NCBI RefSeq assembly: GCF_006345805.1
Contig: NC_043011.1
Coordinates: forward strand, 28,470,464 to 28,534,463
Direction of reading: 5' to 3'
Length of the DNA: 64,000 nt
Source of the DNA: Octopus sinensis
Lineage: Eukaryota
In this document: positions 29,011-58,569 of the stretch, one piece after another
Numbering within the stretch: position 1 is the stretch's first letter
Layout: every line of letters begins with the position of its first letter
Made by a program: the position numbers and the translations under genes
The notes under the pieces: model-generated
What the model saw: only the letters and a program-made list of their open reading frames with translations
What the model was told of the DNA's origin: nothing
Database searches by the model: none

Positions 29011-29013
<3 letters not shown>

Positions 29014-29447
29014 AGTGACTGTGTGTCGTCCCCTCTTTGTAAGGCCGTTATGGCAAATTTGATTAAATAAAGTAGGTTGCTTACCAACCACATGGCATCT
29101 TGGGCAAGTGTCTTCTACTATAGCCTCGGGCCGACCAAAGCCTTGTGAGTGGATTTGGTAGACGGAAACTGAAAGAAACCCGTCGTATATATGTATATTT
29201 ATGTATATATATATGTGCGTGTGTGTGTATGTGTGTGGCTGTGTTTGTCCCTCCAACATCGCTTGACAACCGGTGCTGGTGTGTTCACCTCCCCGTAACT
29301 TAGCGGTTCGGATAAGAGACCGATAGAATAAGTACTAGGCTTACAAAGAAAAAGTCCTGGGGGTCGATTTGCTCGACTAAAGGCGGTGCTCCAGCATGGC
29401 CGCAGTCAAATGATTGAAACAAATAAAAGATAAAAAGAATTAAAGAA
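29011..29447 (+). mobile_element. SINE family 1 with a 45-bp LINE-tail insertion in its head (duplicated at 30443-30875)
   Basis: Family consensus interrupted between GTGTG and AAGTAGGTTGC by TCGTCCCCTCTTTGTAAGGCCGTTATGGCAAATTTGATTAAAT. Confidence 0.85.
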
Positions 29448-31814
29448 TATATATCTACAGCTGAGTTTGTGACTGTGAGTATATTATTTGAGTATGTTTC
29501 TTATGTAGTTGTGTGACTTCATGACTGTGACTACTTAGTTGTGAGATTTTGTATTTGTACAATAGTGATCGTTTGAATTCATGATTGTGACAGTGTGTGA
29601 CTATCATTCTATATAATTCAGCAACTTTACGGACGCTTGACTCTGAGATGTATAGCTGTTGGACAGTGTATCACTATTCCTAATAACTTCATGAATACGT
29701 AAATATATATATATTCGAGTTTGTATTTTCACAACTATGTAACTAGGTGTCTGTGAAACTTCGTAGTTATGTGTCAGAGTTGCTAGATAGTTGAGAATCA
29801 TTTGTAAATAGTTTAGACATCAACAGGCTACACGAAACTCGTAGTATTCTTAAAAGTGTCTGTTTAACAAGAGTAGAGGAGTGGTTCAATAAAATGATAG
29901 TGACAGCTTCATCTGCAATTCGTTCTATATGAAATCATATCATGCATATAAAATATCGGGTGATGGAGAGATAAAAGACAAAGAAAGACGAAAGAAAAGA
30001 GAGGAAAGAGAGAAATATAGATTGGGAGAAAAAACAGATGTACTGAGAGAGAAGCGTGTTGAATAAAAGATTAAGGTAGAAATATTAGAAATATTTATAG
30101 ATGGATGACTAAATAAAAAGTAAATAAACATCTGTTTTATTTATATATATGTGTGGGGGGGTGTATCTGTGTCTGTGTGTGTATACACATATATATATAT
30201 ATATATGGATGAATATATATATATTTATATAAATATATATGTAAACATACATATATATAAGTATATATACATATATATATATGAGTATACATATATATAT
30301 ACATAAATATATAGACATATACGTACTTACATATATATATATATATACATGTATATGTATGCAAATATATATACATGAACATATGTATGTGTATATATAT
30401 ATATATATAATATATATATATATATATAATATATATATATATAGGAGTGACTGTGTGTCGTCCCCTCTTTGTAAGGCCGTTATGGCAATTTGATTAAATA
30501 AAGTAGTTGCTTACCAACCACATGGCATCTTGGGCAAGTGTCTTCTACTATAGCCTCGGCCGACCAAAGCCTTGTGAGTGGATTTGGTAGACGGAAACTG
30601 AAAGAAACCCGTCGTATATATGTATATTTATGTATATATATATGTGCGTGTGTGTGTATGTGTGTGGCTGTGTTTGTCCCTCCAACATCGCTTGACAACC
30701 GTGCTGGTGTGTTCACCTCCCCGTAACTTAGCGGTTCGGATAAGAGACCGATAGAATAAGTACTAGGCTTACAAAGAAAAAGTCCTGGGGGTCGATTTGC
30801 TCGACTAAAGGCGGTGCTCCAGCATGGCCGCAGTCAAATGATTGAAACAAATAAAAGATAAAAGAATTAAAGAATATATATCTACAGCTGAGTTTGTGAC
30901 TGTGAGTATATTATTTGAGTATGTTTCTTATGTAGTTGTGTGACTTCATGACTGTGACTACTTAGTTGTGAGATTTTGTATTTGTACAATAGTGATCGTT
31001 TGAATTCATGATTGTGACAGTGTGTGACTATCATTCTATATAATTCAGCAACTTTACGGACGCTTGACTCTGAGATGGTATAGCTGTTGGACAGTGTATC
31101 ACTATTCCTAATAACTTCATGAATACGTAAATATATATATATATTCGAGTTTGTATTTTCACAACTATGTAACTAGGTGTCTGTGAAACTTCGTAGTTAT
31201 GTGTCAGAGTTGCTAGATAGTTGAGAATCATTTGTAAATAGTTTAGACATCAACAGGCTACACGAAACTCGTAGTATTCTTAAAAGTGTCTGTTTAACAA
31301 GAGTAGAGGAGTGGTTCAATAAAATGATAGTGACAGCTTCATCTGCAATTCGTTCTATATGAAATCATATCATGCATATAAAATATCGGGTGATGGAGAG
31401 ATAAAAGACAAAGAAAGACGAAAGAAAAGAGAGGAAAGAGAGAAATATAGATTGGGAGAAAAAACAGATGTACTGAGAGAGAAGCGTGTTGAATAAAAGA
31501 TTAAGGTAGAAATATTAGAAATATTTATAGATGGATGACTAAATAAAAAGTAAATAAACATCTGTTTTATTTATATATATGTGTGGGGGGGTGTATCTGT
31601 GTCTGTGTGTGTATACACATATATATATATATATATGGATGAATATATATATATTATATAAATATATATGTAAACATACATATATATAAGTATATATACA
31701 TATATATATATGAGTATACATATATATATACATAAATATATAGACATATACGTACTTACATATATATATATATATACATGTATATGTATGCAAATATATA
31801 TACATGAACATATG

Positions 31815-31830
<16 letters not shown>
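29011..31830. repeat. Near-identical 1.43-kb tandem duplication (29011-30400 and 30443-31830)
   Basis: Period about 1432 bp; differences I can see are 1-2-bp indels; junction and ends are (TA)n. Confidence 0.95.
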
Positions 31831-31869
<39 letters not shown>

Positions 31870-32279
31870 GTATGTATTTATGTATGTATATATATGTACA
31901 TATATATATATGTGTATATATATATAAGTATATATATATGTATATATGTATATATATGTATATAAGGAGGGAGGGATGGTGGGACGAAGGGAGTGAGGGA
32001 GAAAGATGGAGGGAGGTAGTAGCACATATTGTATATAATAATACATAAACATGCATAAATATAGTTGGTAGAAAATTTTGTTCAAAGCATATATTTTCAC
32101 TGCGATAACATCTTTAAAAATAAATGGTAAATAGGTTTTTTTTTATTTCCAGTAGGAATCAATTTCCTCACAAGAAAACTAGAGTACAGAAGCTGGTGCA
32201 CATTAAATAAGATAAATACTTATTAAGCAAACGGTAAACAATGATTTTCTTAGTTATTTCTGGTTTTTTCGTAAATGTA

Positions 32280-32490
32280 TGTGTGGGTGCTGAGAAGTTC
32301 CTGGCTTTGATAAAAGAAAATGCAAGAGGATCAGTAATAATGATTGCATTAAACAAATTCTCCTCTCAGAACCTCACACTTATTGTAGCGGTCCTTCGGT
32401 TTTTGTAAGCCCCGTAAAAGAACTCAGAAGGTTTGGTCTCCAGCGAGGTCTTTCGCTATACCCTTAAAGTCAGGAACATTTCAACCATCG
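32280..32490 (-). mobile_element. mariner-derived MITE (same family as 17292)
   Basis: GGGTGCTGAGAAGTTCCTGGC / GTCAGGAACATTTCAACC termini and shared interior. Confidence 0.8.
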
Positions 32491-32552
32491 TACATACATA
32501 GAGACAGACAGACAAACATAGGAAGACAGACAAACAAACAGACATATAGATA

Positions 32553-33426
32553 TGTTTCTTTATTAGCACACAGATAGAACAAATTACAAGGTAGAGCTTT
32601 TCTTTTGGGGGTAAAAAAAAGAGAGTGGTGGTTTTCGATCAAAAGGGATCGTAAAAGGAAAGTAAAAGGACAAAAAAAAGGGAGGGGTTAAAAAAAAGGG
32701 GGGGAAGAAAGAATAATAGGGATCGTTATCACAGAAATGTCAATATGAAGTGTAAAGGGGAGGACCTGGTGAGGTTTACCCGTGGGAAGAAAAGCCTACG
32801 GAAAAGACCACGGTACGCCTCGGTCAATGGAGTCAATGTTATATTTCTTTTTTTTTTTTGCAAATAAGCAACTCTCTGTATTAATTTTTATGGTTCATAG
32901 AATCATAGTCAAGGTGGCTTCGTCATTCATACGTGCCATCCTTGCTACATTCCCCATCTTTTTTTAAAACATTCACTAGACAAAACTTGCCTCTCTACTC
33001 TCACTTTCCTCTTCAAGTGATACTTGAAGAAGTTGATGAGAGATTGACCAGAGAGGAAAGTGTTTGTCTCTAATCCTTTCAGGCGCGTCCACCAGATACA
33101 TTCTTTCGCCATACCACAAGTATGATAAAAATAGCTCTTCCTTCCCGTTGAAGGAAGGAGGCGTGACGATATTAACGATAGACTCGGCTGATAAACCGAC
33201 ACGTCCCACACGTGACAGCAGTCGTTCGACATAAGCCACAGGTCGGAAATTGCTGGACACTGCACGATTGCGTGCAGAGCGGTTTCGTCGCTCTGCCCGC
33301 ATCTCGGGCAGGTCGGCCCCGTGTTCTCGAGCCATGCCTATAGAGCTTATCCCGAACGGGTAGCGCTTCTCGGTAGCACCGCCAGGCCAGGGATCTCTGG
33401 AAGTTGTCCATAGGTCCCGGGCCGAA

Positions 33427-33427
<1 letters not shown>
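32553..33427 (-). mobile_element. 5'-truncated Tx1-type LINE (ORF2 C-terminus plus 3'UTR) in a (GATA)n tract
   Basis: FGPGPMDNFQRSLAWRCYREALPVRDKLYRHG...TCPRC...QCPAISDLW...AKECIWWTRLKG; 3' AATAAAGAAA end; GATA/GACA repeats on both sides. Confidence 0.85.
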
Positions 33428-33504
<77 letters not shown>

Positions 33505-33716
33505 GTAGATACACGCATACACATACAACCATATATATGTGTATATATACGCACATACACACATATATATAAAGTTATATAAATCTACGCATATATATAC
33601 ACACATTCATATCTATGTCTGTATATATGTATGTATGTGTGTGTACCTGTATTCATATAAGCACTACAAGCACATATGCATATATATATATACACACACA
33701 TTTATATATATATATA

Positions 33717-33757
<41 letters not shown>

Positions 33758-34019
33758 TTATATAAATATATACATATTTGCACTTATATATATGTGTGTG
33801 TGTGTATTTACACATACATATATATATATATACATATATATATACACTATGTGCGTGTGAGTGTGTGCATGTGTGCGTGTGCGCGTGTGTGTGTGTGTTG
33901 TGTACATGTACATGTTTAGTTAAGGTGTTTCTTGCAGGCATACGGACATCGGCGACTCAGCGGAAGCACAGATTCTTCACATTGAAATTCCTTAGAAAAT
34001 GTGTTCTGACTCTTGTTCT

Positions 34020-34400
34020 GACATCCCGTTTTACTCTTACATCTAGTAACGTCATGAATTGGAACGTTCGGAAAATTTTACAGCCCGAGTTCAAATTCTA
34101 CCGAAGTCCACTTCGACTTTCATCCCTTCGGAGTTGACAAAATAAGAACCAGTCGAAGACTGACACCGTTAAAATCGATTTAGAAGCTTCCCTGAAATTG
34201 CTGGCCTTGTGAAAAAATTTGAAACTTATATACATACAAGGCCTGAAATTTGGGCCAGTGAGAAGCCGATTACAACGACACATGTCGTGGACTGGTACTT
34301 ATTCTATTGATAACGAATGGGTTGAAAGGTGAATTTGACCTCGGTGAGATTTCAATTCAGAACGTAAAGATCCGGAAATAGACAATTTGTCCGATGCGCT
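34020..34400. mobile_element. SINE family 2 copies in opposite orientation
   Basis: GAGTTCAAATTC...CTTTCATCCCTTCGGAGTTGACAAAATAAG (+) followed by reverse-complement modules. Confidence 0.6.
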
Positions 34401-34719
34401 ATCGGAATATTCTGATATGTATTAACAGTAGAATATTTTGCGTAAGAAATGAAATCCCTCTTTATCTATATGGAACACAATTATCTGAGACATACGTATT
34501 AAATGCGTTCATAATTGTGTTGCATGGCTTGCCTTCACTTTTATAGATTAGGCGACTCTATGTGCTGTACAAGCTACAGGACATATATTCATTCACACGG
34601 TTGCCATGATTACGATCTGGAGTAGTTAGACGTATTCGAGTCGTGTCGGAGTTTCTTATAACATGTAGCGTTTCTAAGCATAACAGGAAATATACATACA
34701 TAATATATATATATATATA

Positions 34720-34982
34720 TATCAATGGATGAATGAATTATCCTTTGTTTACCGTTAACATGGAAAATTTAATAAACAGTTACCATGGTAGCAAAATTCA
34801 CGCAAGTAACAGGGATGCAGCGACCTATTCAAAGGTAGAAACACCGAGTTAATGTGCAGTAATTTGTGTAGTATAAGTAAATAAATGGAGTTGAACGTAG
34901 ATGCTATTGAAATTCTTTTACTTTCGACATATGTTTCGAAGACAACATTGGATTTAATCCGAAGTAATAAACGGTGTCAAAT
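34720..34982 (-). mobile_element. PLE pLTR fragment with the 3' half of a hammerhead
   Basis: Minus strand GTTGTCTTC-GAAACATATGTC-GAAAG (palindromic ACATATGT plus GUC); CUGANGA half lost; (TA)n flanks. Confidence 0.5.
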
Positions 34983-35000
34983 ATATTACTTATATATATA

Positions 35001-35065
<65 letters not shown>

Positions 35066-35096
35066 ATATATATATATAACATATATATATGTATAT

Positions 35097-35285
35097 GCCC
35101 TTTTAAAGCCTAGCCAGGCTCATGGACCCGGTCTCCCGTTTTCTATGGCGTATGTGTTCCCCAGCTGGACGCGACGCCAGTCCATCGCAGCGTTACTCAT
35201 TTTTGCCAGCTGATTGGACTGGAGCAACGATCATGATGCTGACACACTAACCACTAACCACTTTCCACTAAGCCACGCGCCTCCA
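35097..35285 (-). mobile_element. SINE related to 42478-42790
   Basis: Reverse complement of GCTGCGATGGACTGGCGTC..GTCCAGCTGGGGAACACATACGCC...ATGAGCCTGGC tail; head CCACTAAGCCACGCGCCTCC. Confidence 0.75.
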
Positions 35286-35654
35286 CTATATATATATATA
35301 TATATTTAGTCAATTTAGGGTAGCAAATTCTGGTGGATGAATGACCTGTTAGGGTCACTCCTAAATTGTTATATATATATATTATATATATTATATATAT
35401 ATAATAGATATATATATATATATATATGTACTCTTTATTTTTATAAACTTTTAATACTTTTGATATATATTTAAAATAATATATATTAAATTATTTTATG
35501 TATTGGCTTATGTTTTTCATTGTTTGATTTGGCTAATAGTGGTTTTATCTCTAATTTAATATAATATAATATAATATATTTATACTTTAAAATTGGATTT
35601 AATCCTAAATCTGATTTTTCCCTGTAAGTTTGGATTTATTCCCTAATATTTTAT

Positions 35655-35695
<41 letters not shown>

Positions 35696-36134
35696 TATAT
35701 ATGCATATATATATATATATATATATACATGCATACACATATATTTATGCATGTACATATGTTGTGAGTGTGTCTGTCTGTGTGCGCGCGTGTGTATGTA
35801 TGTATATATGTGCGAACATAACTTTCAATCTAACACTACCCTATGAATCATTTATTAATTTCGTCCTTATATCAAGATGAATTATTATAATTCTATCGTT
35901 TCTCCCATTCCTGCATTGCATTTATGTTGCTTTATATATTCTAGCATATCACATATGCATGAGATGATCTTTTTTCTCAGCCCCAATGTGTTTGACTTTA
36001 TGTCATTAATTGACTCCGTCTTTTTTTTTTTTTATCATACGCACTTTTTCTGTATAATTTATAATATAATTATAAGGCATGTATTTCCAATCTATTTAGA
36101 TGAAAATTCATCGATGTGAACCTACCTATGTGTG

Positions 36135-36173
<39 letters not shown>

Positions 36174-36280
36174 TATCTATATATATATATATTATATACA
36201 CTATATATATACATATATATATATATATATACAACACATATATATATTATACATATATATATATACATATATATATATAT

Positions 36281-36325
<45 letters not shown>

Positions 36326-37033
36326 ATATATATATGCATATATATCTATAGATATAAGTACATTTATGTAATCATACATGTATGAACATATATGATATAT
36401 GTATATACATAGGTAGACAAATATCTATAGGTTTATACATAATACATTAGATTATATCATATTGCATATTTTTCATAATTGCATGATATTTACTCTATTA
36501 TCAATATATAATTTTACTGTTTATTTATCCTGTGTTTTTTATTCGAACATTAATCCTTATTTTTTTAGTTTCTATTCAATTAGCGAATATTACTTTCTCA
36601 TAATTTATGATTCAACAGAATTTTTTTGTTCTCTTCTGTGTGCATATATATGAATGCATATATATAAATATGAATGAATGCCCATGTGTGCGTGCATAAG
36701 TCTTATGTATTATACATAAAGAAATATATACGTCGTCATCATCATCATATATATATATATATATATGGTCCGTAAGTAATAGTTTTTTTATTTCGTATAT
36801 TTTCATTTGTCTTGCTCATTATTACATTCTGGTGTTTACTGAATTTTTTCTTAAGAACACACTCTTCGTGGTAAGGGTGATTTGACGCCTATCTTTAGCA
36901 TATTAGGATTCCACTTTGGTGGTCATTCCTCTTAATTTGTATGTAATATAATTTTTAATCTTCGGATTTTTTAAATATGCTAAGCCGCTGGTTTAAATTG
37001 ATGGTTAATATCAATTTCTACCTTCATTATTTC

Positions 37034-37069
<36 letters not shown>

Positions 37070-37124
37070 ATATATATATATATATATATAAATAATATAT
37101 TATATATATATATATATATATATA

Positions 37125-37209
<85 letters not shown>

Positions 37210-37243
37210 TATATATATATATATGTATATGTATATGTATATA

Positions 37244-37338
<95 letters not shown>

Positions 37339-38184
37339 GTATGTATGTATGTATGTATGTATGTATGTATGTATGTATGTATGTATGTATGTATGTATAT
37401 GTGTATTATTATGTTGTCTACATTTAGAAAATAACGTACAGAAAAATATTTTATACAAATATATTCCATTTAGTTTTGTAGTCCTAACTATAGCGCTATT
37501 ATTCCACTTTTAAAGCTTAGATCCACTACAATGATTGAATTTTACTCCTCCCTCTTCGAACAATACCTTTTTATTTATTTTTTTTTTACCTTACTGCTAA
37601 AAAAATATCAATTTGTAGATTTCATCTATAAATTGAAAAAGAAAATTAGTTTCTTTTTACTTTAAATATGTTAGTACTTCTCATACTAACGGCTAATGCT
37701 TTTAGAATGAAGTTGTCGGATTAATTATAGAAATACATCCAGTTAAAACGAATAGAATAATATCATCATAACTGATACAAGAAGAATGATCAAATCGTTA
37801 CTCGAAATGAAGGGAACAATATTCAGTGCTCTAATATGTGTGGTTATTTCTCCTATATCGTCTTATTAACTGACACTCCGTCCGCTACGACGAAGCTTTT
37901 TTCAGCTGACCCGGTCATGAAATTAATGTGCAAATGCTTGAACACTCCACTGACACGAGTACCTTTACCATAGTTCCTGGAAAAATTCAGCTTGCCATAG
38001 TACGTGACAAGGCTAGTAATTTGAATTGCAGGTAAAACTCATTTTTGCAGCTGAATGGGTTGGTGCAACGTGAATAAAAATGTCTTGTTCAAGGACACAA
38101 CACGCTGCCTGGAATGGAACTTCTGACCTTATGAACGTGAACCGGATGGCCTAACCAATAAGCCAGGCGTTTTCGTTCGCGTCA

Positions 38185-38592
38185 TCTCCATATATATAAA
38201 CGGCAGTTTGTCTGTCTGTGTGTCTGTGTGGCTGTCAGGTTGTACCCTCACCCTGACCACGGCTTTCAACCGATTCTGATGAAACTTGACACACACATAG
38301 CCCAATGTCATAATTCAAAACTAACGCAGCGAAAATTTTGAAAAGTTCCCCCAGTTCTGAAAAAAATCGATAAATTCGACATGGGGTCGAGAATCTAAGC
38401 TTTTTATATGCAACACATTTTCTGTCTGGAGACAGCTAGGAACATCGTATACATAGAAGTATTCGAGTGAAGAGAAGACATTGCAACCTACACATGCGCC
38501 TTCGTTCCCTGGAGGGAAAGAACTAGATTGGGATTAGTCGTTGCCTACTAGGGGCTCTTACATACTCGGACAACGCCGGGCTATGCTGCTAG
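38185..38592 (+). mobile_element. Non-autonomous Helitron
   Basis: A|TC 5' end (TCTCCATATATATAAA), subterminal hairpin CTCGGACAACGCCGGG, 3' CTAG|T, no TSD. Confidence 0.8.
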
Positions 38593-38820
38593 TTTTATAC
38601 TAAGTTAGAAAACAAATCTGCTTCTTTAAATAATGGCAATATTTGCTTAGTCAGAAGATTAAGAATAAATTAAATCAATTATTCCAAGCAACATTTTAAG
38701 TGGAAGTGTCAACACATTCGCTGTTCTTATTCAGCACCATCTTTCTCATACATATTCCTCTTTTCTCCTTTTGCAGACACAATGAGACTAAATCATTGTT
38801 TTAAAATTTTTGAAAAGATA

Positions 38821-38913
38821 TGGGCAAGTGTCTTCTGCTATAGCCCCGGGCCGACCAATGCCTTGTGAGTGGATTTGGTAGACGGAAACTGAAAGAAGCC
38901 TGTCGTGTATATG

Positions 38914-38968
<55 letters not shown>

Positions 38969-39175
38969 TGTGTTTGTGTGTCTGTGCTTGTCCCCCTAGC
39001 ATTGCTTGACAACCGATGCTGGTGTGTTTGCGTCCCCGTCGCTTATCGGTTCGGCAAAAGAGACAGATAGAATAAGTACTGGGCTTACAAAGAATAAGTC
39101 CCGGGGTCGATTTGCTCGACTAAAGGCGGTGCTCCAGCATGGCCGCGGTCAAATGACTGAAACAAGTGAAAAAGT
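38821..39175 (+). mobile_element. SINE family 1, 5'-truncated
   Basis: Starts at TGGGCAAGTGTCTTCT and matches the family body and tail. Confidence 0.9.
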
Positions 39176-41130: not shown

Positions 41131-41143
41131 GATAGGCAGAAAA

Positions 41144-41218
<75 letters not shown>

Positions 41219-41337
41219 TGCGGGTAGGTGGGTAGGTAGGTTAGTAGATATTTAGATATGTGGGTAGACGAACAGACAGGTAGATATATAGATAGACAGA
41301 CAAACAGACAGACATTTAGATAGACAGACAGACAGAC

Positions 41338-41416
<79 letters not shown>

Positions 41417-43200: not shown

Positions 43201-43285
43201 TATCCTGTTGCTTATTTTGATATTATTCACCTTACTTGGAGCTCTACAGGTAATACCGGATAAAATCAAAATAAGCAACAGGATA
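43201..43285. repeat. Small fold-back element
   Basis: Perfect 21-bp inverted arms TATCCTGTTGCTTATTTTGAT / ATCAAAATAAGCAACAGGATA. Confidence 0.7.
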
Positions 43286-43991: not shown

Positions 43992-44100
43992 CGCTTGTAT
44001 GTTTTTATGCATGCATTTTTAAATATGTATATATTGTCCCAGAATCTCAGAAAGCCGAATGAATCAGAAGTTCGTTTCATAATCATGAAAGTTATCTAGA

Positions 44101-44309: not shown

Positions 44310-44353
<44 letters not shown>

Positions 44354-45953: not shown

Positions 45954-46005
<52 letters not shown>

Positions 46006-48727
46006 TCTCTTTTAAAATTCGTTTGTTTCCGTTATTTAATTCTATATAAGATTTTAAATGTTTTTTTCTCTTTTAATGCTAAAAGCGATCTCACATAACG
46101 TCCATTTATCATTCAGTTGAAGTTAGAAGAAAAATCATTTCTTTCGAAAAGAGATGTTGATGACAAGTGGGTTAGACTATTAACTAATGATCCAGTGACG
46201 TATTAAACTAATCCGTATTCGAATCTTGTTAAAGCTGAGCTTGTACTTTATTCTCTCAATTCAGAGGAATCACTGTACATTAATATATCTCAAATGTGAT
46301 ACCGCAAGTCAAAAATATCAGTCAAATAAGCCTGCTAGAAACAGCAGTTAAATCTTCCGAAAAACCTCAAACCTATTGCTTTTAAAAAAGAAAAGAGGTA
46401 TTCCATACAATAATCTTATATACATTAAGTCAGATAAAAGATATATTACGATTATTACCAGCACTATGTTTAGACAAGAGTTCAACTAGTTACTGACCTT
46501 GTATGTATGTATGTATGTATGTATGTATGTATGTATGTATGTATGTATGTATGTATGTATGTATGTATGTATGTATGTATATATATGTATGTATGTATGT
46601 AATTACCTTTCATTTCTAAAACGGCAATGAGAAATCTCTCCAGACATAATTCCCTTTTCTAGAATGAAGCCCACTTCGTGACTTCTATCAAGTTCTTCAA
46701 TGATTCTTTTTCAACTTTTATTCAGAAGCAAAGGTAGCTCCCATGATCTCTGAAAGGACGCACAACACTGGTGAAAGGGAGGTGAGAGAAGAATATCCCC
46801 TAATCAGAAACCTGACCCAGGTACAGGCAGCAGAATGGACTCTACCAAGAGAATCCAAATTACCAGCTGGTGGTTTGATATCTGGTGATGGGATAAGTTA
46901 CCACTGTTAGACCACGGCAGGATTTGAACTTAGAAGCAAAAAAAAAAAAAAACTGAAATAAATACCATGATGTATCCGGTCCGACGTTCATACAGTTCCG
47001 TTAATCAATGGACTTGGATTCGTGCATTTTATCGACCATAAAAGGACGAATAGTAAAGTTAATCCTGCGAGATTTGAACTCAGAGCGTATAGTCGAAAAA
47101 AAGTAGTGAGAACCCTTCTTTCCACGCATTAATGATTCCCTCAATTCCCTGCCTGTATGTACGTTCTGTATGCCATAATTCAGTATTCTGGATTGTTCCA
47201 AATAGATTGATATTGTGAAGAGTTTACATTATATCACGTTTCCATATCTTTTAAGTTATCTGTGATAGTCCTAACGTTTATTTATTACCCAAGTTTGAAA
47301 AGTTATGAATTTGATTGAAGTGGGAGATTCAGAACTTGAATATTAAAACGGAAGCATTCCATAGCCCTTAAAGTTCTCTATGATTTTATGTCATGTGTCA
47401 ACAAGTCATCTTTCTGAACCCGTCTAACTACGCCCCGAAAACTTAGAAACGAATTAGATTAAAACCACCCTGGAATCGAATTTAAGATTGCATATTCGGC
47501 TTACCGAGAGATGTTCATACACAAAATGGGTTCTTTTGTAGTTGAAAGCATTAAAAAATTCTTTTAGGTTGTTAAGCTTCTATAATTTGTCCGAGCAAAT
47601 GAAAACTCTTTTCGATAACTCAAACTGTAGGAATAGCAAACAAATCTTCCTCAGATCATATCATTCTGCCTCAATAAATCAAGGATACTTTAGATAATGC
47701 GATCATAAATACAATATGCCTGGAAAGAAACGGTGAAATGGTAACGGAGAGGAAAATTTAGATTCTAGATCTCTGTCCAATAGAGTATGACCTGAAGTTA
47801 TTTATTAAACAACGAACAGAAATATAAATATAACTTAATTCTGTGTTTTTTAAAATGGGTTCCCAGATACCACTGAATCCCGTAAAATATTGTTTTCCAT
47901 GAGATAAGTTATCTTTTAATAGAACTTTATAAAAATTTAATATAGTGTTTTGAAAAAAAAAAACATTTGAACAATTCAGGTGAGAATTCAGGCAAAATAT
48001 TTAACGTGACTTCAATAAATGAAACCAAAGAGAAAAGAGATAGCATTACTTTGTACAGGTTGTTTAATGATTTCCCATTTCAAATTGAACGAAGAAAATA
48101 ATCAACAATCCGGAGAAACGCGTTGTTATCAGCAGAACATTATTTTATCAAAAAAATTAATATTCACTATTTCAAAGTAATATTATTGCTGTTGTTTTTA
48201 TAGGAATGAATTCTCTCTGAAAAACCTATATACAATTGAAGTTGTAGTAACATATATGGTTAATTCACATAAATATATAGACGTATATAGATATATATAT
48301 ATATATATATATTCATACACACACATCATACACATGTATGTGAGCACGTGTTTCATTTGATGTCTTCCAAATACTAGAGCAGTGGGATTTGTCCGTAAAA
48401 TATGAATGTAGCTTTTTCGATTTTTGTAAAACTATGTAAGCGTGCGAGTTTAAAAAATACATTTTCGGTCCCACTGATGTAAGTTATCGCGCTTAGAATA
48501 GAAAATGACATAATCAACATTATATCTACCATTCTATCATTTCTGTCGTCCATATCTTTCTTTTATCACTTATTCTGGGACCACAGAATTCACGGATCGA
48601 AACTAATTCAAGGGTACCAGAAACTCTGGATTTCTTTCATAGATAAATTCCCGGTATAATGGGAGACCACTTATCTAAAGATGAGAAATATCTAGTCGTC
48701 GATATCGGAGACAAATCTTTCTTCACA

Positions 48728-48845
48728 GCTCAGTATGCTCAGAGTCTACTGCTCAGTATGCTCAGAGTCTACTGCCTACTGATAGGATATATAAGCGCTG
48801 CGGTTTCGCTATCACTTGATGGCATCAGGTCCGAACACGGTAAGT
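48728..48845 (+). promoter_or_regulatory. Candidate Pol II core promoter with short first exon
   Basis: 23-bp tandem duplication, TATATAAG at 48788, Inr-like TCACTT 26 bp downstream, consensus donor G|GTAAGT at 48839/48840, in non-repetitive sequence. Confidence 0.4.
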
Positions 48846-49749
48846 TCCGTTGCTCTACAGTTCTCTTGTTAGCAACAATGATATTCCTGAATCGATACAT
48901 ATTCGACCACTTGACTATGACTGATCAATCGCAACTGACTAACAAATCTGGTGCTCTGAAATTACGCCGATTTATTCTTCAAATGTTGCATGAACGATCA
49001 CGCAAGTGAAACTCAAAATAACAACAGAATCATCAACGAATTCTAAATGAATAGAAACGCTGAACTGTGTCACGGATACGTTTTTTTCTTCAACTGTTAT
49101 GGAACAAAAACACACACACTCACATATACATACAAACACACAAACACAAACCTGCACACATATGACAGTGAAACTGCATATATGTGTGTGTGTGTGTGTG
49201 TGTGCGTGTGTGTATGCATGAATATACGTATATGTGTACGTATTTACGCATGTACGCGTGCCCATATTTATATGAGTGAGTGCTGCAAAATGTCCATACA
49301 CAATACATCATTGCAATCTGAGTAGTTACTTTCATTGATGCTGTAATGAAATCATCTCTCTGCTTGCATGGAGGATGAAAAGCTAATCATGTTAATTTGT
49401 TAAAGGAAATTGGAGGGAAATAAAAGGGAGAAAGAAGCCATCTTAAGGAGAAAATCAAAACGAGGCTCGTCTTTTATCCTGTTTTAAAGGAATTACTGTA
49501 CGAATCTTATCCTTTTAACAATTGCAATCTGTAAGCTGCCGCATATATTTCTATTAGAAATATTCTATGTATGTACGTATCAATATTCTATGTATGTACG
49601 TATCAATGGAAGTATGTAAGCATGTATGTTTGTGCATATGCACGTACCCACACACATTTACATATACGTATTTATTTATATGTGTGTATTAACATACATA
49701 TCGCTTCATACGTTACATACATAGATACATACATATATATATATATGTC

Positions 49750-49809
<60 letters not shown>

Positions 49810-50060
49810 TATAGATATAAAAACGTATCTATAGAAGTGTATGTATTATATATATATATATATATATACATATATATACACGGGCGCGCTCGCGCGCTTA
49901 CACGCGCTAGATGCAAGTATATACTAGTATAATTCTAATAGAAATATGTGTTTATATATATGCAGATATATATAGACAAATATATAGAAGTATATATATC
50001 GTTATAAATACATACAATACACAAACACATGTATAATATTATATCAAGGCTTTTATATAT

Positions 50061-50092
<32 letters not shown>

Positions 50093-50292
50093 CTTTATTT
50101 TAAGCAGCAGAAAATTCAACAAAATCTGTTACTCTGAGTTTCTCGTTGCCGTTCATCATGAACGGCAACGAGAAACTCAGAGTAACAGATTTTGTTGAAT
50201 TTTCTGCTGCTTAAAATAAAGCATATTACTCTACCACTGGTATTTGAGTACTCTTTTTTCCACCTTGTTTCACATTTATGTGTTTACTCCGG
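50093..50292. mobile_element. Perfect 64-bp palindrome formed by inverted PLE pLTRs at a truncated hammerhead
   Basis: Arms 50093-50156 and 50158-50221 are exact reverse complements; each reads ATGA-ACG-GCAA-CGA-GAAACTCAGAGTA-ACAG. Confidence 0.8.
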
Positions 50293-50304
50293 TATATATA
50301 TATA

Positions 50305-50383
<79 letters not shown>

Positions 50384-50515
50384 TATATATATGTACATAT
50401 ATATATACATATATATAACGGGAAGCTTTATGAAAATAAACAAAAGACGAAGGCAGGTGGAAAACAAACGAACAATTGTATTAGTATGGCGCTCAGGAAA
50501 TATAAATAAAACAAG

Positions 50516-50553
50516 TCTTTAACGTTTCGAGCCTACGCTCTTCAACAGAAAGA
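50516..50553 (-). ncRNA. Minimal type I hammerhead ribozyme, A6U core variant
   Basis: TCTTT-CTGTTGA-A-GAGC-GTAG-GCTC-GAAA-CGT-T-AAAGA within a pLTR fragment (50418-50605). Confidence 0.78.
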
Positions 50554-50923
50554 TACACAGAGAGAGAAAAACACAGAAAGAAGGAGAGAAAAAAAAATGC
50601 GTGCAACATATATATATACATATATATATATACACATATATATATACATATATCGTTATAAATCCATACAATACACAAACACATATAATATTTTATCAAG
50701 GCTTATATATATACATATATATATACATATATATACATATATATACAATATATATATACATATATATACATATATATACATATATATATATCACATATAT
50801 ATATACATATATCGTTATAAATCCATACAATACACAAACACATATAATATTGTATCAAGGCTTATATATATATACATATATATATATACGTATATATATA
50901 CATATATATATATACATATATAT

Positions 50924-51004
<81 letters not shown>

Positions 51005-51069
51005 TAATATATATATCGTCTAAATCCATACAATACATACACACACATGTATAATACTCTATCAGGCCT

Positions 51070-51100
<31 letters not shown>

Positions 51101-51276
51101 ATATATATAATATATATATATATATATAAGCTTTGATACAATAGTATACATGTTTGTGTATTGTATGTATATATATATGCATGTACATATATCTACATAT
51201 GTGTGTAGGTGTTTGTGTGCGTGTGTATGTGTATGTATATTCACATGTACACACACACACACACACACATACATAC

Positions 51277-51311
<35 letters not shown>

Positions 51312-51579
51312 TGTATGTATGTATGTATGTATGTATGTATGTATGTATGTATGTATGTATTTATGGTTTTTCAGAATGTGGACATGTAATGAAACTATTC
51401 AACTGATTAATAGATTCAAGATTTGCCATTAGAAAATTATTCCACGTATGAATATGATGTTTCAAGAATGGTAATTATTTCGCCAACGGTGCGAAAGGTG
51501 TCGTTCTCATGCTGTCCATATCAACAGTGCGCACCTTTTGTCTACAGTGCATGCCCTTTACGACTAAGCGAAAAGGCAC

Positions 51580-51810
51580 CTCCTCCTTCTTCTTCTTCTT
51601 CTTCTTCTTTTTCTTCTTCTTCTACTTCTTCTTCTTCCTTTTCTTCTTCTTCTTCTTTTTCTTTTTCTTCTTCTTCTTCTCCCTCTTCTTCTTCTTCTTC
51701 TCCTTCTTCTTCTTCTTCTCCTCCTCCTCCTCTTCTGCTTCGTCATCGTCGTCGTCGTCGTCGCCTTTGTCATTGTTGCTGTTGTTGCTGTTGCTGTTGA
51801 CGACGATGCT
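51580..51810. repeat. (TTC)n/(CTC)n/(GTC)n/(GTT)n trinucleotide tract
   Basis: Direct tandem repeats. Confidence 0.95.
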
Positions 51811-52302
51811 ATTGACTATTTGACTATTTCGTCGTTCATGTTTTATTCTTTATTCTTGTTCAGATCTTGTCCAGATCTTTCCATGTGATCTGTGGCAACA
51901 GAATTTTTTTTTTTTTTCCTTTTTTCTTGCTTTAATTCAATATGAATTTTATTATTATTAATCATATTTATATGTTTTACATTATATTCTATTCATATTT
52001 TATTTATTTATTTATTTATTTATTTATTCATCTCTTACTGGAGATGAAACAGGGAAACCTGTATATGTTCATGATATGACTGCGATTCCCAGGCCAAAAC
52101 ATTTCACTCTTCTGCGTCTAATATCTATTTTTCTTATTCTTGTTGTTGGTTTAGTCGTTGCTGTTATTGTTACTGTTGTTCTTGTAGCTGTTGATGATAA
52201 ATATGTCGTTATGGTTGTTAACGGCGGTTTTTTTTTACCCAGGTTAGCCTTAACTATTCAGATGTCTAATCATGAGTATTTCGGTCATCAGCATACTGTC
52301 TG

Positions 52303-52349
<47 letters not shown>

Positions 52350-52651
52350 GGCGCACGCAGACGCACACGCCTCATGCACACACGCATACACACACGCACA
52401 TACTCACATATATACATATATGCATATACATATATATATATACATATATATATATAGACAGAGAGATAAATAGGCACACAGACAGACTGACTGACAGACA
52501 GACACACACACAGTCAGTCAGACACACAGACAGACACACTGACACACAGACAGACACACAGACAGACACACAGACAGACAGACACACACATTGACACACA
52601 GACAGACAGATAGACACACAGACAGACAGACAGGCACACAGATAGACAGAC

Positions 52652-52741
<90 letters not shown>

Positions 52742-52749
52742 TGTAAAGA

Positions 52750-53800
52750 AGTTTGCTTCAAGATGAATTAGCTTGATGTCATTAATATACCTGTTAGATT
52801 GCTGTTGATCGCACCAGCAGAAAAGGCATCAGGGGGGAAGTAAATTCCAGTATCTGAGTAGAGGGGTACGAGAAAATCGGATTTCGGGTAAGGACACCTG
52901 TGGACCTGAGGTGGAAGAGGGTTTGTACGAGATTTAATGCTATTTAGTCAAATGTCCTGTTTTATGGATGCGTTCGAGGATGTCTATGTGCATAGCAATC
53001 GTGTCGTTTCAGAAGTTGGATCAGTAGTCTATTATGATCCACATTAGACCAGCAATTAATATTCAGCTTCCACCCCAACCCTCGCTGCGAAAGCAGAAAT
53101 ATGTGTGGGGCCTGAAGAGAAAAGCCGGCGTTGAATATGTAGCCCTATCATTGTTTAGGTATACTTTCAGCAGGTGAGAAAAATTTCTGACTTACTTCCT
53201 TCAAGCAATCAAGACAGTAAAATTTAGCAATGTGGAACATGATTTTAGGCTCCGGGCTCGGAGTTTTACTGATAATTCAAGAGGGTTAGATGACGTTTTT
53301 TTCCCTGCTTTTTAGGCATAAGCATGTTGTATATTCATGACCCCTCCGTTCGATGTACGGGCTGACACCGACTTTTCTACACCCTAATCATTAGATACCT
53401 TTCTCCTCTGATCAAGCCTATAAGAAACAGGGAGAAAACAGTGTAGATGGAACAAGTTTATGGAAACGTATGGGTGGAGGAACCTCAAAGGTAATTGTGC
53501 ACTCAAGTCTGTGTGAAAGTTGCTAGTTTCGTTTATCATCTTGCCTCCAGCACCATGTCTTTCCCCATTGCCGGGCCCCCTTGTCTTAAAGTAGGCGCAA
53601 TTGGCTTCCTTAAATTGTGGTATGACTGAGGAATTAACCTAAATTTCGTTCTTTTCCAAATGTTAGTATAAATTCCTCCCATGTGAAGAGCTACCCACGA
53701 TAGAACAACTCATGTTCAGTGAGAAAAGTCTTTCATCTGCTACGCCATTCAGAAACTCAATTTAAGCTTCTGCATCATATATCTTAGCTATTAAATGCAA
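52750..53800 (-). mobile_element. Old CR1/L2-like LINE remnant
   Basis: Minus strand FSRTPLLRYWNLLPPDAF resembles the FxxRxxxxWNxLP ORF2 C-terminus; extent uncertain. Confidence 0.4.
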
Positions 53801-54483
53801 TAACATCTGATAGAAATAAATCAATCTTATCCGTTAGGATTTCTTTGTGTTATAAGTTCTACTTTTGTTTGTTTTTAATCACCGAGTTTGAAATGTGAAA
53901 AGAAGTTTGTCTCCTTTTAAGATAACCATGCGTCCAATGACCATAAAAATGCCATTGGAGATTAAAACTTAATTATAGGATTAATCTGGAATATCAATAC
54001 CAATTGCAGATATTCGATCAAGTATAACTTTTCAGGTGTTACAATCTGAAATTATTGAAAAATATCAATAACAGAAACTTTTATTTTCAAGATGAAATAT
54101 TAATTACTCCGTTGATGTGTTGTTTCGATGTAGGACGAGGTTACAAACACATAATACGAAAGTGGTGAAATTCTAGCATTAGTTGATCGATTACATGCAG
54201 AGGTCACCTTCACCACTTGAGCTGCTCGTACATTTACAGAAGAAGAAATTAAATTTCACAACATCGCGTCACGCAATAAACACCTCCATCAAGTACACCT
54301 GGTCACATAAAATCTGCCATCCACATATTTGGTTTTTGATGACGTTCTACCGCTTCTTCTCTCCACTGGTTATTGTTGCCCATAAGTTGTAGTTCGCTGG
54401 ATTAAATTCTTAAGAGTATTTAGTTAAAATTCTTTACGTCTTCAGGTCAAATCTCCACCGAAACCATCATACCAAGTAAAGTC

Positions 54484-55336
54484 AGGTATGATCAATAAGT
54501 ATACGGACTGTTGCCATAGTAACGAAGCTAAAGCGTGCAGAGTAAAGCCGTTTGGCATATATTGACCTTGAACTCTGAAATCTGCTGTGCATGCGCACTA
54601 AGATTTAACATTCTAGCTCACTTCCGCTGTTTACAGCAGTGCTTGGAAGAAACGTGTGTAGCGTGTGATCGTCGCATTGACAATGACAAAGTTGAACAGA
54701 GAATCTACATCAAATTTTGCCAAAAGCTTGGCAATACCTGCTCAAAGGCTTACGCAAAGTTTTCAAAAAATTTTCATCGTTCTTGACAAAATCAAGAAGA
54801 TCTTGTGCAAGTGAAACCCGAATGTCTTTTTCGTCAGCTGAAAGCAAGTTTGATGCAAACTTGGCAGACATGCGTCTCATATCCAAATCTTCTGTGATAA
54901 TGGACTGAACTGAACCGTACCTAATCTGCACATGCTCTGATAACTCACCGATAGGGATTCGACGACTTCCCCTCACAGATGCACGCACATCGATGTTTTT
55001 CTCAGTCCTGCTAGTTGCGGGTCTCCCAGAACGTTCGTCAATATCGACATCCTGAACTACTTGTACACTTGTGTGTGGCTCATACACTTTCTGCAACTAT
55101 GCGCAGGCCTCTGAGCAGATATCTCCATCACAACCTTATCATGGTTAATGAGATAATCACACGCTACACCTCTTCCTTCCAAGCACTGTTGTAAACAGCA
55201 GAAATGAGCTAGAACGCTAAAACTTAGTGTGCATGCACAGCAACGTTCAAGGTCAAACTTTACCTAGCTGCCTTACTCTGCGTATTTTAGCTTCGTTACT
55301 ATGGCAACACTTCGGATACTTATTGACTAGACCTCG
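54484..55336 (-). mobile_element. mariner derivative with two inverted 5' ends (~260-bp IRs)
   Basis: TCAATAAGTAT..GTTGCCATAGTAACGAAGCTAAA at both ends; internal mariner N-terminus DERSGRPATSRTEKNI...MRRMSAKF; left arm carries VEQRIYIKFCQKLG. Confidence 0.85.
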
Positions 55337-56542
55337 TATGTCGATATAATGCAATAAAGCAGTGTTTATCATCAGAGGGGAAAGAGAGAGAGAGAAACAG
55401 ACAGAGAGAGACAGACAGAGAGAGAGACAGAGAGACAGAGAGACAGACAGAGAGACAGACAGAGAGACAGACAGAGAGACAGACAGAGAGACAGACAGAC
55501 AGAGAGAGACACAGAGAGAGCGCGGAAGAGAGAGAGAGAGCATAAGAGAGAGAGAGAGAGCGTGAGAGAGAGAGAAAGATATAAGGATTGATAAAAAGTG
55601 AAGGTATACCATTTACCATGTTTAATAGAATTAATAAAATGTTTCCAGTGTTTAAAACTTGAATAGAGAATTATATGGATGCAGATTCTCTATTTTCATT
55701 TCATTATTAGAAAGTGATGGGGAGGTTTAACAAAACATTTCTCTTATATTCTGGTGGGGAGGGGAGATTAGTGTTCGTTATTTTGACAACTACTTGACTA
55801 CAGCATCGGAGATGAGGTCCTAATGTAACGGCAAGTCCAGTTATTACTCGCAATAAAACACAAAATAATAGTTTATTATTTATTCCTGGCTTGTAGTTGA
55901 GTTTGTTTCAAGAGCGCGGATAACTGGAGCCAATAGTGTAACAATTATAAAATTCTTCCACGTATGAATATGATATTTCAAGAAAGGTAATTAATTATTC
56001 GGCATCGTGGCGAATGTTAATGTTATTACAGTCTGTCCATATCAATAGTATACAGTTATCGTTTACAATATGCGCTCGTTTTAACAGTGTAGGATTCAGA
56101 GAATCTTTAGAACATCGGACTAAATGCCATGCAGTATTATTTGTTGTTCTGAGTTCAAGTCCCACCGAGTTCATCTTTGCTTTCCATTTTTTCGGAAACC
56201 GACAACATAAAGTTTCATCCAAGTACCAGTATCGATATAATCGATTTAGATATGAGACATTTGTGCCTCAGTAACCGAAATTATCAGTAAGTAAACCAGC
56301 TTCTGCTTTGGTTATTTATAGATGTCTCCGTTTGATCTCTGAGATCTATCATGTGGCTAACACCCTAGAAAATATAAATCATTGTTGCTGCTCAGATATT
56401 GAAAACCCATTTCGATATGTCAAAATTAGTTTGCGATTCCCAGCCCGAAATAGTTCAATCGTCTACATCAAAGATTTGTTTGATATTCTCCTTGGTTTTT
56501 TTTTGTTTTGTTTTTTTTTGTTTTTATATTTCGCGTACGCAG

Positions 56543-56646
56543 ATAATCGAACGGGCGTTGTACAAGTGACCGAGATGGCTGTGTACCGGATGACCTAATC
56601 AGCAGCGTACACGATGAGTAAGCTGAGCGTGTACCAGCTAACCTAT
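56543..56646 (+). other. Candidate host-gene exon (5'UTR plus start codon)
   Basis: Long poly-T tract then CAG| acceptor at 56542; ATG at 56614; donors A|GTAAGC (56617/8) or TAT|GTGAGC (56646/7, giving MSKLSVYQLTY). Confidence 0.35.
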
Positions 56647-57138
56647 GTGAGCATGTTAATGGATATCTTAGTTCAGAGCGCACTGACTATCAACGCCAGT
56701 ACTACACCAAATCACCCAACCTTCTTTGTTACTCTTTCTTTTAGTCTCTTTTACTCTTTTACTTGTTTCAGTCATTTGACTGCGGCCATGCTGGAGCACT
56801 GCCTTTAGTCGAGCACATCGACCCCAGGACTTATTCTTTGTAAACCTAGTACTTATGCAATCGGTCTCTTTTGCCGAACCGCTATGTCACGGGGACGTAA
56901 ACACACGAGCATCGGTTGTGAAGCGATGTTTGGGGAACAAACACAGACACACAAACATATACACACACATACATATATATATACATATATATACATACGA
57001 CAGGCTTCTTTCAGTTTCCATCTACCAAATCCACTCACAAGGCTTTGGTTGGCCCGAGGCTATAGTAGAAGACACTTACGCAAGGTGTCACGCAGTGGGA
57101 CTGAACCCGGAACCATGTAGTTCGTAAGCAAGCTACTT

Positions 57139-58569
57139 TATTTCAATTATTTTGCCATAAAGGCATTACATAGAGGGGACACTACAAAACATGTGGAGAC
57201 ATATAACAATTAAGAATAAAAATAAAATGATACTGTGAGTGACATGAAAATGAACGTGAGAAAATAAATTAAGTTTATGATAACATGCATGATATCTGAA
57301 AATGAAATATGACGAGTGTGCTACTCACCCCACTCTGAGCAACACCACTCGCTGCCTTTGAGTCTGAATTCTTCTCTAATCTCTGGTCTAGTCCTTCTTT
57401 TTCCACTCTCACTATCGCTTAAAGACAACATTCTTTCGCAACCTTTTTCTTTTTTTCTTGTGGGGAAAGGGAGTGGGTGGGTCTGGTGTCTGTATGGGGC
57501 GGGTGGGTCTGAGTGGTCTTGGGTGGGATGGAGTTGGACTGGGGTACCATTTCACACTCAGTGTTCTTTCTTTTCTTCCTCTTCTTACTTCTGCTCTCTG
57601 CTACTATCCATTCTTCCTCATTTCGTCCGTCTTTGTCTTCGTCCTCTTTTTTCTTCTTTGTCTCCGCAACTGGTTCATCTATTTTTTCCTCTATCTTTTT
57701 CTTCTGTAGGGGACAGTGTGCTCTAATGTGGCCTTTTTGGCCACATTTAAAGCACCGCGGGGTTCTGCCTTCTACCCATACTCTCAATACTATTTCTCCC
57801 ATTGTCACCGTTTCCGCCAAATTTTCCAGCTCCTTCGCCTCCGCTTGTATGATCATTTCCAGTAATTTTCCTTTGTAGCTTCCTTCCTCTGTCTCTGTGG
57901 CTTGGAGGACAGTCACCTCTTCACTTCCAACGAGGACGGCTGCCGCAAACCAAGCCACTTTTATGTCAGGTGGAATTCCTTCTACCCTCACCTTAGAATT
58001 CTTTCTTCCAAGATAGGAGGGTAGAAGTACTAGTTCCTCAGTTTTTACGGTTGTACTTGCCAGCCTCTTTGCCTCCTCTTCTGTTTTAAACTGGACAACC
58101 ACCGTCCCATATCCGCTTCCTTTTGCTATATATGTTACTTCCTTCGAAAGCCCCTTGAGAGCTTTTTCTACTTTTTCCATCTTCATCTGCTCCACCCTCC
58201 TACTCTCCACTGAGTGCACCTTGTAGGTAATTGTCTTCTTTTCCATATTTGCCATAACCGTTTTCGGGGGTAATAACTTCACATCACTTCCCACCTTCTG
58301 TGTCATCTTATACAGCTCCTTCAGTCCAGTTAGGTCTACTTCCTTTTTCTTTACCTCTGCCGCGTCAGCAAAACTTTTTATTTTTTCCAAATGCTGGTCC
58401 ATTCTGTTCACCGCCTTAACGAGCTCCTCCTCTGATGTGGACAGTTCGTACTCGCTAAGGTCCGAATACATTATTTTCCACTCGCCAACAAACCGCTGGC
58501 GAGCAGCTCAAAGGATTCTGTCCGCCTTGTCAAAACTCGACACAGTAAACAACTCGACGCATGCGCGTT
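57139..58569 (-). mobile_element. ORF1-only (HAL1-like) non-LTR retroelement of Tx1/L1 type
   Basis: 12-bp TSD AGCAAGCTACTT (57127-57138 and 58570-58581); ~100-nt 5'UTR, single ORF, ~280-nt 3'UTR, A-rich tail; no ORF2. Confidence 0.85.
57419..58471 (-). CDS. Gag-like ORF1 nucleic-acid-binding protein with CCHC zinc knuckle (350 aa)
   Basis: Uninterrupted ORF; CFKCGQKGHIRAHC = CX2CX4HX4C; RRM-like VVVQFKTEEEA and KVRVEGIPPDI segments; K/E-rich tail typical of Tx1/L1 ORF1. Confidence 0.85.
   Translation of the reverse strand: MYSDLSEYELSTSEEELVKAVNRMDQHLEKIKSFADAAEVKKKEVDLTGLKELYKMTQKVGSDVKLLPPKTVMANMEKKTITYKVHSVESRRVEQMKMEKVEKALKGLSKEVTYIAKGSGYGTVVVQFKTEEEAKRLASTTVKTEELVLLPSYLGRKNSKVRVEGIPPDIKVAWFAAAVLVGSEEVTVLQATETEEGSYKGKLLEMIIQAEAKELENLAETVTMGEIVLRVWVEGRTPRCFKCGQKGHIRAHCPLQKKKIEEKIDEPVAETKKKKEDEDKDGRNEEEWIVAESRSKKRKKRKNTECEMVPQSNSIPPKTTQTHPPHTDTRPTHSLSPQEKKKKVAKECCL

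Follow-up and report, generated by a model that had tools for sequence, protein, structure and literature searches.

Two retroelement tails meet the same base in the heads of two different short interspersed elements (SINEs) within a 64,000-nucleotide stretch of the Octopus sinensis genome (contig NC_043011.1; G000:C15:28470464-28534463), here called the window, and the question raised by this locus is whether a lineage of long interspersed elements (LINEs) uses this SINE as its target, as an earlier note on the same DNA had proposed. Our analysis of the window and of the whole 2.72-Gb genome makes this highly probable: LINEs of the likely Tx1 clade, together with derivatives that carry only the first open reading frame (ORF1), appear to insert in sense orientation at GGT^AAGWAGCTTGCT in the SINE head, in all likelihood by target-primed reverse transcription (TPRT), with target sequence at the ends of the element RNA probably sharpening the choice of site.

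The preference first seen in two insertions is general. Copies were selected genome-wide by tail motifs that contain no SINE bases (a query with 38 SINE bases was excluded from the counts), and 133 of the 150 ended at AAGWAGCTTGCT in SINE sense orientation, compared with an expectation of 1.9e-5 per position and strand from the 105,608 exact intact SINE heads in the genome, a chance that rises to 1.9e-4 per position if heads are ten times more numerous. The motif of the type bearing a reverse transcriptase (RT), ATGCCTAAATGGCAAATT, gave 90 exact matches, of which 80 were read and the 10 on small contigs left out; 75 were on site (69 with the site and SINE body, 6 with the site and other sequence) and 5 were off by rule. 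The second motif, ATGCCTTTATGGCAA, gave 348 matches, and among the first 70 in genome order 58 were on site (53 and 5, respectively) and 12 were off. The 3' flanks accordingly share one 12-16-mer, and the generic AT-rich flank that had been set beforehand as the refuting outcome was not seen. Exact tail-to-site joints number 923 genome-wide, with none in the reversed control, which corresponds to an occupancy of about 1% of intact heads, so that the effect on the spread of the SINE is likely small. The SINE head may act as a safe harbour, as the earlier note had suggested.

The window itself contributes the following elements, targets and hosts to this picture:

57139..58569, minus strand: full-length ORF1-only (half-LINE-like) element of the non-LTR type (LTR, long terminal repeat), 1431 bp, without poly(A)
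57419..58471, minus strand: ORF1 of this element, about 350 codons, with a zinc knuckle (PF00098) and a weak RRM
58570..58581, minus strand: 5' target copy AAGTAGCTTGCT, the same 12-mer as at the 3' end
57127..57138, minus strand: 3' target copy AAGTAGCTTGCT, whose first two A's form AATAAA with the last four bases of the element
58582..58603, minus strand: 5' part of the host SINE head, 22 bases, with the A-box-like motif TGGCTATGCGG at 58593-58583
56746..57126, minus strand: remainder of the host SINE, with the B-box-like motif GGTTCAGTCCC at 57107-57097, body and AGTAAAAG-repeat tail
59521..59962, minus strand: uninterrupted target SINE, used as empty-site reference, with A-box-like motif at +11, site at +23 and B-box-like motif at +54
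29028..29069, plus strand: 5'-truncated tail of the same lineage, 42 bp (42-44 bp), nearer the RT-bearing type, GTCCCCTCTTTGTAA
29070..29081, plus strand: target AAGTAGGTTGCT in a second SINE copy, with SINE head at 29011-29025 and body to about 29445
30443..30874, plus strand: second copy of the 29011 unit, within a local tandem duplication

The element at 57139-58569 opens on a target-like tag, with AAC following the 12-mer, and its last bases are TGCCTTTATGGCAAAATAATTGAAATA; at its 3' joint GGCAAAATAATTGAAATA runs directly into AAGTAGCTTGCT (57138-57127) and then into the SINE body. A single ORF lies between the duplicates and RT is absent, as in its 1.45-1.5 kb relatives, and since ORF1 stays open over 412-420 codons in sister copies, the window ORF1 is likely frameshifted near its end. 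Relatives of this element were collected by tail (40 scored) and by ORF1 (120 matches); all 28 with a readable tail lay within 3 mismatches of the site, and 1 of 29 was without the tail motif. By reference to the empty SINE, the insertion falls just past the A-box, as had been stated, and parts the two promoter boxes, which we take to be A-box-like and B-box-like from the general box consensus. The tail at 29028-29069 is joined to AAGTAGGTTGCT in the same orientation, in a SINE copy that differs from the host of the 57139 element and has a 25-bp deletion over the B-box region, so that two insertions at one site of the SINE head are indeed present. The 30443 copy lies inside a tandem duplication (28966-30442 / 30396-31869, about 1.43 kb; 98.9% identity, 13 gaps, 3 mismatches) and therefore represents, as had been recognized, one insertion event with the 29011 copy. 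The differences between the two halves are mostly single-base indels in runs, and the repeat may be either a real duplication or an assembly artefact. Although the window copies had been regarded as one family, they belong to three subfamilies, namely a 1.45-kb ORF1-only, an RT-bearing and an approximately 2-kb ORF1-only type, within what is nevertheless one lineage.

The RT-bearing partner was reached from an ORF2 remnant upstream of locus L098, which led to 143 scored matches. Its representative, L171 (G000:C8:54.10 Mb), is 5435 bp long, occupies the same site and encodes a 467-aa ORF1 with CCHC and a 1130-aa ORF2 frame of APE-RT-zf-RVT order, with PF03372, PF00078 and PF13966 as the only families at E 0.01. 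Most of the 80 RT-type copies are 97-99% identical to L171, and of 40 copies followed over 6 kb, 29 extend to the 5' end. The best solved relative of its ORF2 is human L1 ORF2p (E 3e-65; R2, 6e-20), and named matches come from Argonauta and a cuttlefish. The N-terminal APE, the RT, the C-terminal cysteine-rich zinc domain and the lack of RNase H are those of the L1 group (L1/Tx1), while target-site duplications, together with copies that are truncated at the 5' end yet share one 3' end, bear the mark of TPRT. Both ORF1s carry the zinc knuckle PF00098, with a weak RRM_3 below cut-off and no L1 ORF1 family; a zinc knuckle plus RRM in ORF1, in place of the vertebrate L1 ORF1 domain, is a feature of the Tx1 clade. 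Target preference in Tx1 elements has been defined by one repeat in over 20% of flanks (PMC4494074), and here the SINE site accounts for 133 of 150 flanks and, in the approximately 2-kb subfamily, for 18 of 30. A sister lineage, whose ORF2 is 64% and whose endonuclease is 55% identical to that of the SINE-site lineage, lies in (TC)n, as seen at all eight 3' ends and all six 5' ends. By this architecture and behaviour, membership of the lineage in the Tx1 clade is likely.

The sister LINEs (L181-L187 and L190, e.g. at G000:C6:112.87 Mb) are young, with ORF2 frames of 1117-1138 aa, and are sometimes arranged in tandem (L184/L185), which makes them a natural control for target switching. Some members of the RT-bearing family (L230, L236, L226, L243, L151) are internally deleted to 2.0-3.8 kb with both ends intact, and ENA/JGI records (P0002-P0120) hold many ORF2 relatives of 38-43% identity in clusters of hundreds.

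How the site is chosen can be approached from the joints. No A-run over 6 stands behind any of the 150 tails and AATAAA spans the joint between element and target, which predicts an RNA whose 3' end lies within the target. At the other end, the 5' joint ends in TAACC in 31 of 33 full-length copies (one more was without a readable site) and the 3' target reads TAACC in 18 of the 33, the 5' joint following the element and not the host at positions 13-16; likewise, the window element reads GCT-AAC at its 5' end and GCT-TAC at its 3' end. An extra base at the 5' joint, present in 13 of 33 copies, is scattered on the tree (11 changes compared with a shuffled mean of 10.7) and was found in 9 of 12 copies whose host has TT at positions 12-13 versus 4 of 21 otherwise (p 0.003). 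The tags vary among families (TAACC, TTACC, TTCCC, CGCTAAC, TCTTACC), and full-length copies make up 29 of 36 on target versus 0 of 4 off target (p 0.004), one of these four being a degenerate SINE site by eye. Together, this 5' joint pattern suggests that the RNA carries target tags. Off target, 9 of 15 joints start with AAGT (chance 0.6%), the repeats of 12-17 bp contain an AAGT(A) core, and the repeat of a copy at 62401 begins AA(C/T)TAG; the core and the repeat lengths point to a nick at a short motif with a second cut 14-17 nt further on.

In the mechanism that we propose, the ORF2 endonuclease would begin with a nick in the bottom strand at the short core (A)AGWA(G), predicted to lie at 5'-AGCAAGCTWCTT^ACC-3'. 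A transcript predicted to read through the AATAAA at the joint would then pair its target-containing 3' end with the nicked primer, the top strand would be cut 14-17 nt downstream, and the end of the complementary DNA (cDNA), bearing a 7-8 nt tag from an earlier host (e.g. TGCTAACC), would anneal to the overhang and yield a full-length insertion; the start of the RNA would accordingly lie within the upstream duplicate. ORF1-only elements would borrow ORF2 in trans and provide their own ORF1, and every insertion would leave a fresh site while separating the promoter boxes of the host SINE. A bolder version, in which target choice is partly inherited because both transcript ends of a family hold a piece of its last landing site (the 3' read-through, allowed by a poly(A) signal completed by the target alone, and the 7-8 nt tag), is re-tuned to every new SINE subfamily and is accompanied by mixed stacks arising through template jumping between matching ends in single events, is put forward here as a tentative idea.

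The best-surviving alternative is that recognition of all 12-16 bp of the site is the work of the endonuclease alone, with no role for the RNA ends, and that the 5' tag is simply the first bases of the element beside a 12-bp duplication. For Tx1 elements, the standard account places target choice in the endonuclease (PMC4494074), the endonuclease is less similar to that of the (TC)n sister than the whole ORF2 is, and the core is kept in both duplicate copies at off-target sites. However, the tag varies with the SINE variant that each family once met, the extra 5' base depends on a mismatch with the host, the duplications of truncated copies (13-18 bp) exceed 12 bp, and the off-target copies are not full length, so that we regard an endonuclease acting alone as possible and rather doubtful.

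Several observations weigh against targeting of the SINE site with help from the RNA ends. By rule, 17 of the 150 tail-picked copies are off site, and the approximately 2-kb subfamily is looser, since the 62401 copy's 30 best relatives comprise 18 on site (15 with SINE body, 3 with other sequence), 11 off and 1 unreadable; site specificity is thus strong, not strict (75/80, 58/70 and 18/30 by subfamily). The 5' joint of the 29011 copy lacks a second copy of the site, and the 5' junctions of the two window insertions differ as had been remarked, the 57139 element having the duplicate 12-mer. The tree behind the extra-base comparison has weak resolution, with 7 of 31 branches starred, and contains one long row, and the tail hairpin folds no better than shuffled sequences (z -0.6 to 0.2). 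All five steps of the proposed mechanism are read from joints. Residues ~347-362 of the L171 protein are out of register with its relatives, no named Tx1 protein occurs among the ORF2 database matches listed, and the ORF1 of the ORF1-only families is 33% and 23% identical to that of L171. Apart from these points, parts of both element and SINE are represented in transcript contigs of four runs from four studies; these contigs contain no start, strand or locus-specific empty allele, since joints across the element arise from any intact SINE.

A second alternative is that the lineage is aimed at tRNA genes and hits the tRNA-derived SINE as a by-product. Indeed, tRNA-Lys(TTT) gives the best alignment with the SINE head among 27 distinct tRNA sequences (sampled from 30 loci, 9 anticodon types only), and the Tx1-type element Dewa targets tRNA-Leu spacers (PMC3706591). 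However, between 3 and 6 mismatches separate the sampled tRNAs from the site, none being within 2 mismatches, and the insertions in real tRNA genes that the earlier note had envisaged did not appear: no tail joint was found at the homologous tRNA position, where the pattern fits 21 of the 27 sequences, versus 923 in the SINE. Moreover, where an on-site copy is followed by a SINE body, it runs on past the B-box into SINE-specific sequence in 118 of 122 cases, so that a tRNA-directed element is very unlikely. ARAGORN found no tRNA gene in the window, and Rfam gave no tRNA match in the target SINE.

The tail of the target SINE reads GACTGAAACA(AGTAAAAG)n. This SINE was also considered as a passenger of the LINE itself, which found no support; its own repeat tail, together with the fact that none of 151 distinct tails is joined to the site, makes it look like a host. 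Its sequence CTTGGGCAAGT has a CORE-like look. The named octopus SINEs of the CORE superfamily are OK, OR1 and OR2, of which OR1 (PMC4824008) and OR2 (PMC4758252) are listed as CORE SINEs.

A third alternative, that the joints stem from one or a few composite SINE-LINE masters amplified as a unit, draws on the same next element following the window family at L034, L040 and L050 and on the RT-bearing family following it at L032, L035 and L041, where some co-copying of stacks is possible. The flanks, however, vary from locus to locus, and near-identical elements occupy different SINE variants: the hosts of 75 near-identical RT-type elements read TAACC in 35 cases, TACC in 18 and TACG in 4, with others in the remainder. 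Private host mutations occur in both duplicates at L086 (AAGAAGTTTGCT) and L235 (AAGTAGCTTGTTAACC), and these ends are true target-site duplications. Duplications in general measure about 12-18 bp, and 5'-truncated copies of many lengths, like the off-target copies, have their own repeats of 13-18 bp. The 29011 tail, with one mismatch allowed, occurs twice in the genome, both times in the window, its host SINE differs from that of the 57139 copy, and many distinct tails meet the same base. The differing flanks, host variants and unique tail therefore reject a composite master for the bulk of copies and bear out the claim that the two events were independent; as a general explanation it is scarcely credible.

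As a separate observation, within one set of copies one tail subtype occupies AAGA-type heads in 14 of 16 cases and the other subtypes mostly AAGT-type heads, while the AAGA head hosts only 1 of 75 young RT-type copies. This pairing of tail subtype and SINE variant may record successive SINE waves.

The weakest alternative, a slight specificity for the AAGTA core with the SINE excess resulting from SINE abundance or from selective loss of copies elsewhere, can appeal to off-target copies that retain the short core and is nearly dismissed by the numbers, since intact heads give 2e-5 to 2e-4 per position, a 6-bp core is, by an estimate from base composition, about 10 times commoner outside these heads than inside, yet 94% of the young 97-99% copies are on site, and, with two thirds of an octopus genome being repeat (PMC13282606), selection would not single out one base.

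The ORF1-only elements travel with this LINE lineage. They fall into at least two groups, of 1.45-1.5 kb and of about 1.7-2.3 kb, which have tail, site and stacks in common with the RT-bearing family, and their ORF1s show 23-35% identity among themselves and to those of RT-bearing families; this low identity indicates that their parent LINEs are not among the families found, with the L171 family a candidate helper. Among nine 1.45-kb copies, dN/dS of ORF1 ranges from 0.13 to 0.29 between subfamilies, at dS of up to 1.6, and from 0.36 to 1.13 between close sisters, a pattern that indicates purifying selection on ORF1 in source copies. The zinc-knuckle ORF1, related to the local lineage (33-35%), differs from that of strict HAL1 (half-L1), a mammalian L1 derivative, so that, as far as their sequences indicate, these elements work like HAL1 and are not HAL1.

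Elements of the lineage also form stacks. A head-to-tail stack of at least 8 units from several subfamilies occupies one SINE head at G000:C7:10.446-10.463 Mb (L153, L067, L154), and in 14 of the 28 relatives of the window element the sequence that comes next is not SINE and by eye resembles another element's start. Among the 150 tail-picked copies 7-9 are stacked (binomial p 8e-4 at 1% occupancy, 0.03 at 2%). Either template jumping between matching RNA ends or serial insertion would explain the stacks. The junction variants shift along the stack on C7, and the 5' ends of L061, L077, L083 and L154 contain GCGCATGCG, CTTCCGG or TGACGT in the first bases after the tag. We take these motifs to resemble NRF1, ETS and CRE motifs, and they are possibly internal promoters that differ by family.

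Preference for another transposon as target is known from Tx1L, which inserts in Tx1D in Xenopus, and from Tx1-Mar, Tx1-8_Crp, Tx1-4_AMi and Tx1-9_AMi in crocodilians (PMC4494074), and tandem insertions that sandwich the target duplication, as found here, have been described for SINEU-3 in the same paper. In these Tx1L and crocodilian cases the targets are DNA transposons or LTR elements (PMC4494074), whereas the octopus lineage targets the tRNA-derived head of a SINE, present in more than 100,000 intact copies, the site lies between promoter boxes and there are ORF1-only passengers. Other members of the clade insert into multicopy sequences, namely Kibi and Koshi into (TC)n and (TTC)n, Keno into U2, Dewa into the tRNA-Leu spacer and Mutsu into 5S (PMC4494074, PMC3706591). 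The octopus elements are alike in their sequence-specific targeting of a multicopy sequence, and their sister lineage in (TC)n resembles Kibi, but the target is a SINE and not an RNA gene, spacer or microsatellite. Similar to HAL1, the ORF1-only elements are non-autonomous, have arisen more than once and show a selected ORF1 (PMC5753468); unlike HAL1, they have a zinc-knuckle ORF1, carry no poly(A), insert site-specifically and form stacks among themselves and with the RT-bearing family. For R1Bm and SART1Bm, a target-like 3' end of the RNA has been proposed to pair with nicked DNA and to improve accuracy (PMC7265360); those elements belong to another clade and target 28S rDNA and telomere repeats, while in octopus such pairing would be accompanied by a 5' tag as well. 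For O. vulgaris, 13 recently active L1-Tx1 families have been reported, and the words 'target' and 'nested' are absent from that paper (PMC13282606). The literature searched holds no LINE targeting a SINE and no such octopus system; Repbase, subscription papers and supplements lay outside the search, so that prior annotation is possible.

The phenomenon is thus real, general and strong, and gives site-specific LINEs of a known kind a new class of target, adding the SINE to the known targets of such elements. It comprises a parasite system of three levels, in which a SINE hosts a LINE that is in turn exploited by ORF1-only passengers, with copies that are young and mostly full length. The occurrence of SINE-site and (TC)n lineages in one genome makes it testable whether a target switch resides in the endonuclease or in the RNA, and a LINE without poly(A) that inserts at full length into a 16-bp site is of interest for site-specific gene insertion tools.

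The third copy of the lineage in the window, together with its repeats, comprises:

62401..63113, minus strand: 5'-truncated copy (713 bp) of the approximately 2-kb ORF1-only subfamily, off target, antisense in SINE family 2
62385..62400, minus strand: its 3' target-site repeat AACTAGTACTTATTTC, 16 bp, with one mismatch to the 5' repeat
63114..63129, minus strand: its 5' target-site repeat AATTAGTACTTATTTC, 16 bp

This copy does lie in a SINE at a different sequence, as had been described. Its reading as the end of an ORF2 was dropped, the sequence being the 3' part of the approximately 2-kb ORF1-only subfamily. The tails of SINE family 2 (61309-61560, plus strand; 26573-26180, minus strand) resemble the LINE tail, with ..GGCCTTGTGCCAAAATTTGAAACCA or ..TGTCTGTCCTTGTTAGTCC..AATAAAGAAATAA, and copies continue into the head of another copy. 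A degenerate fragment at 59163-59477 (minus strand), similar to a fragment in L095, presumably resembles the end of a CR1/L2-type ORF2.

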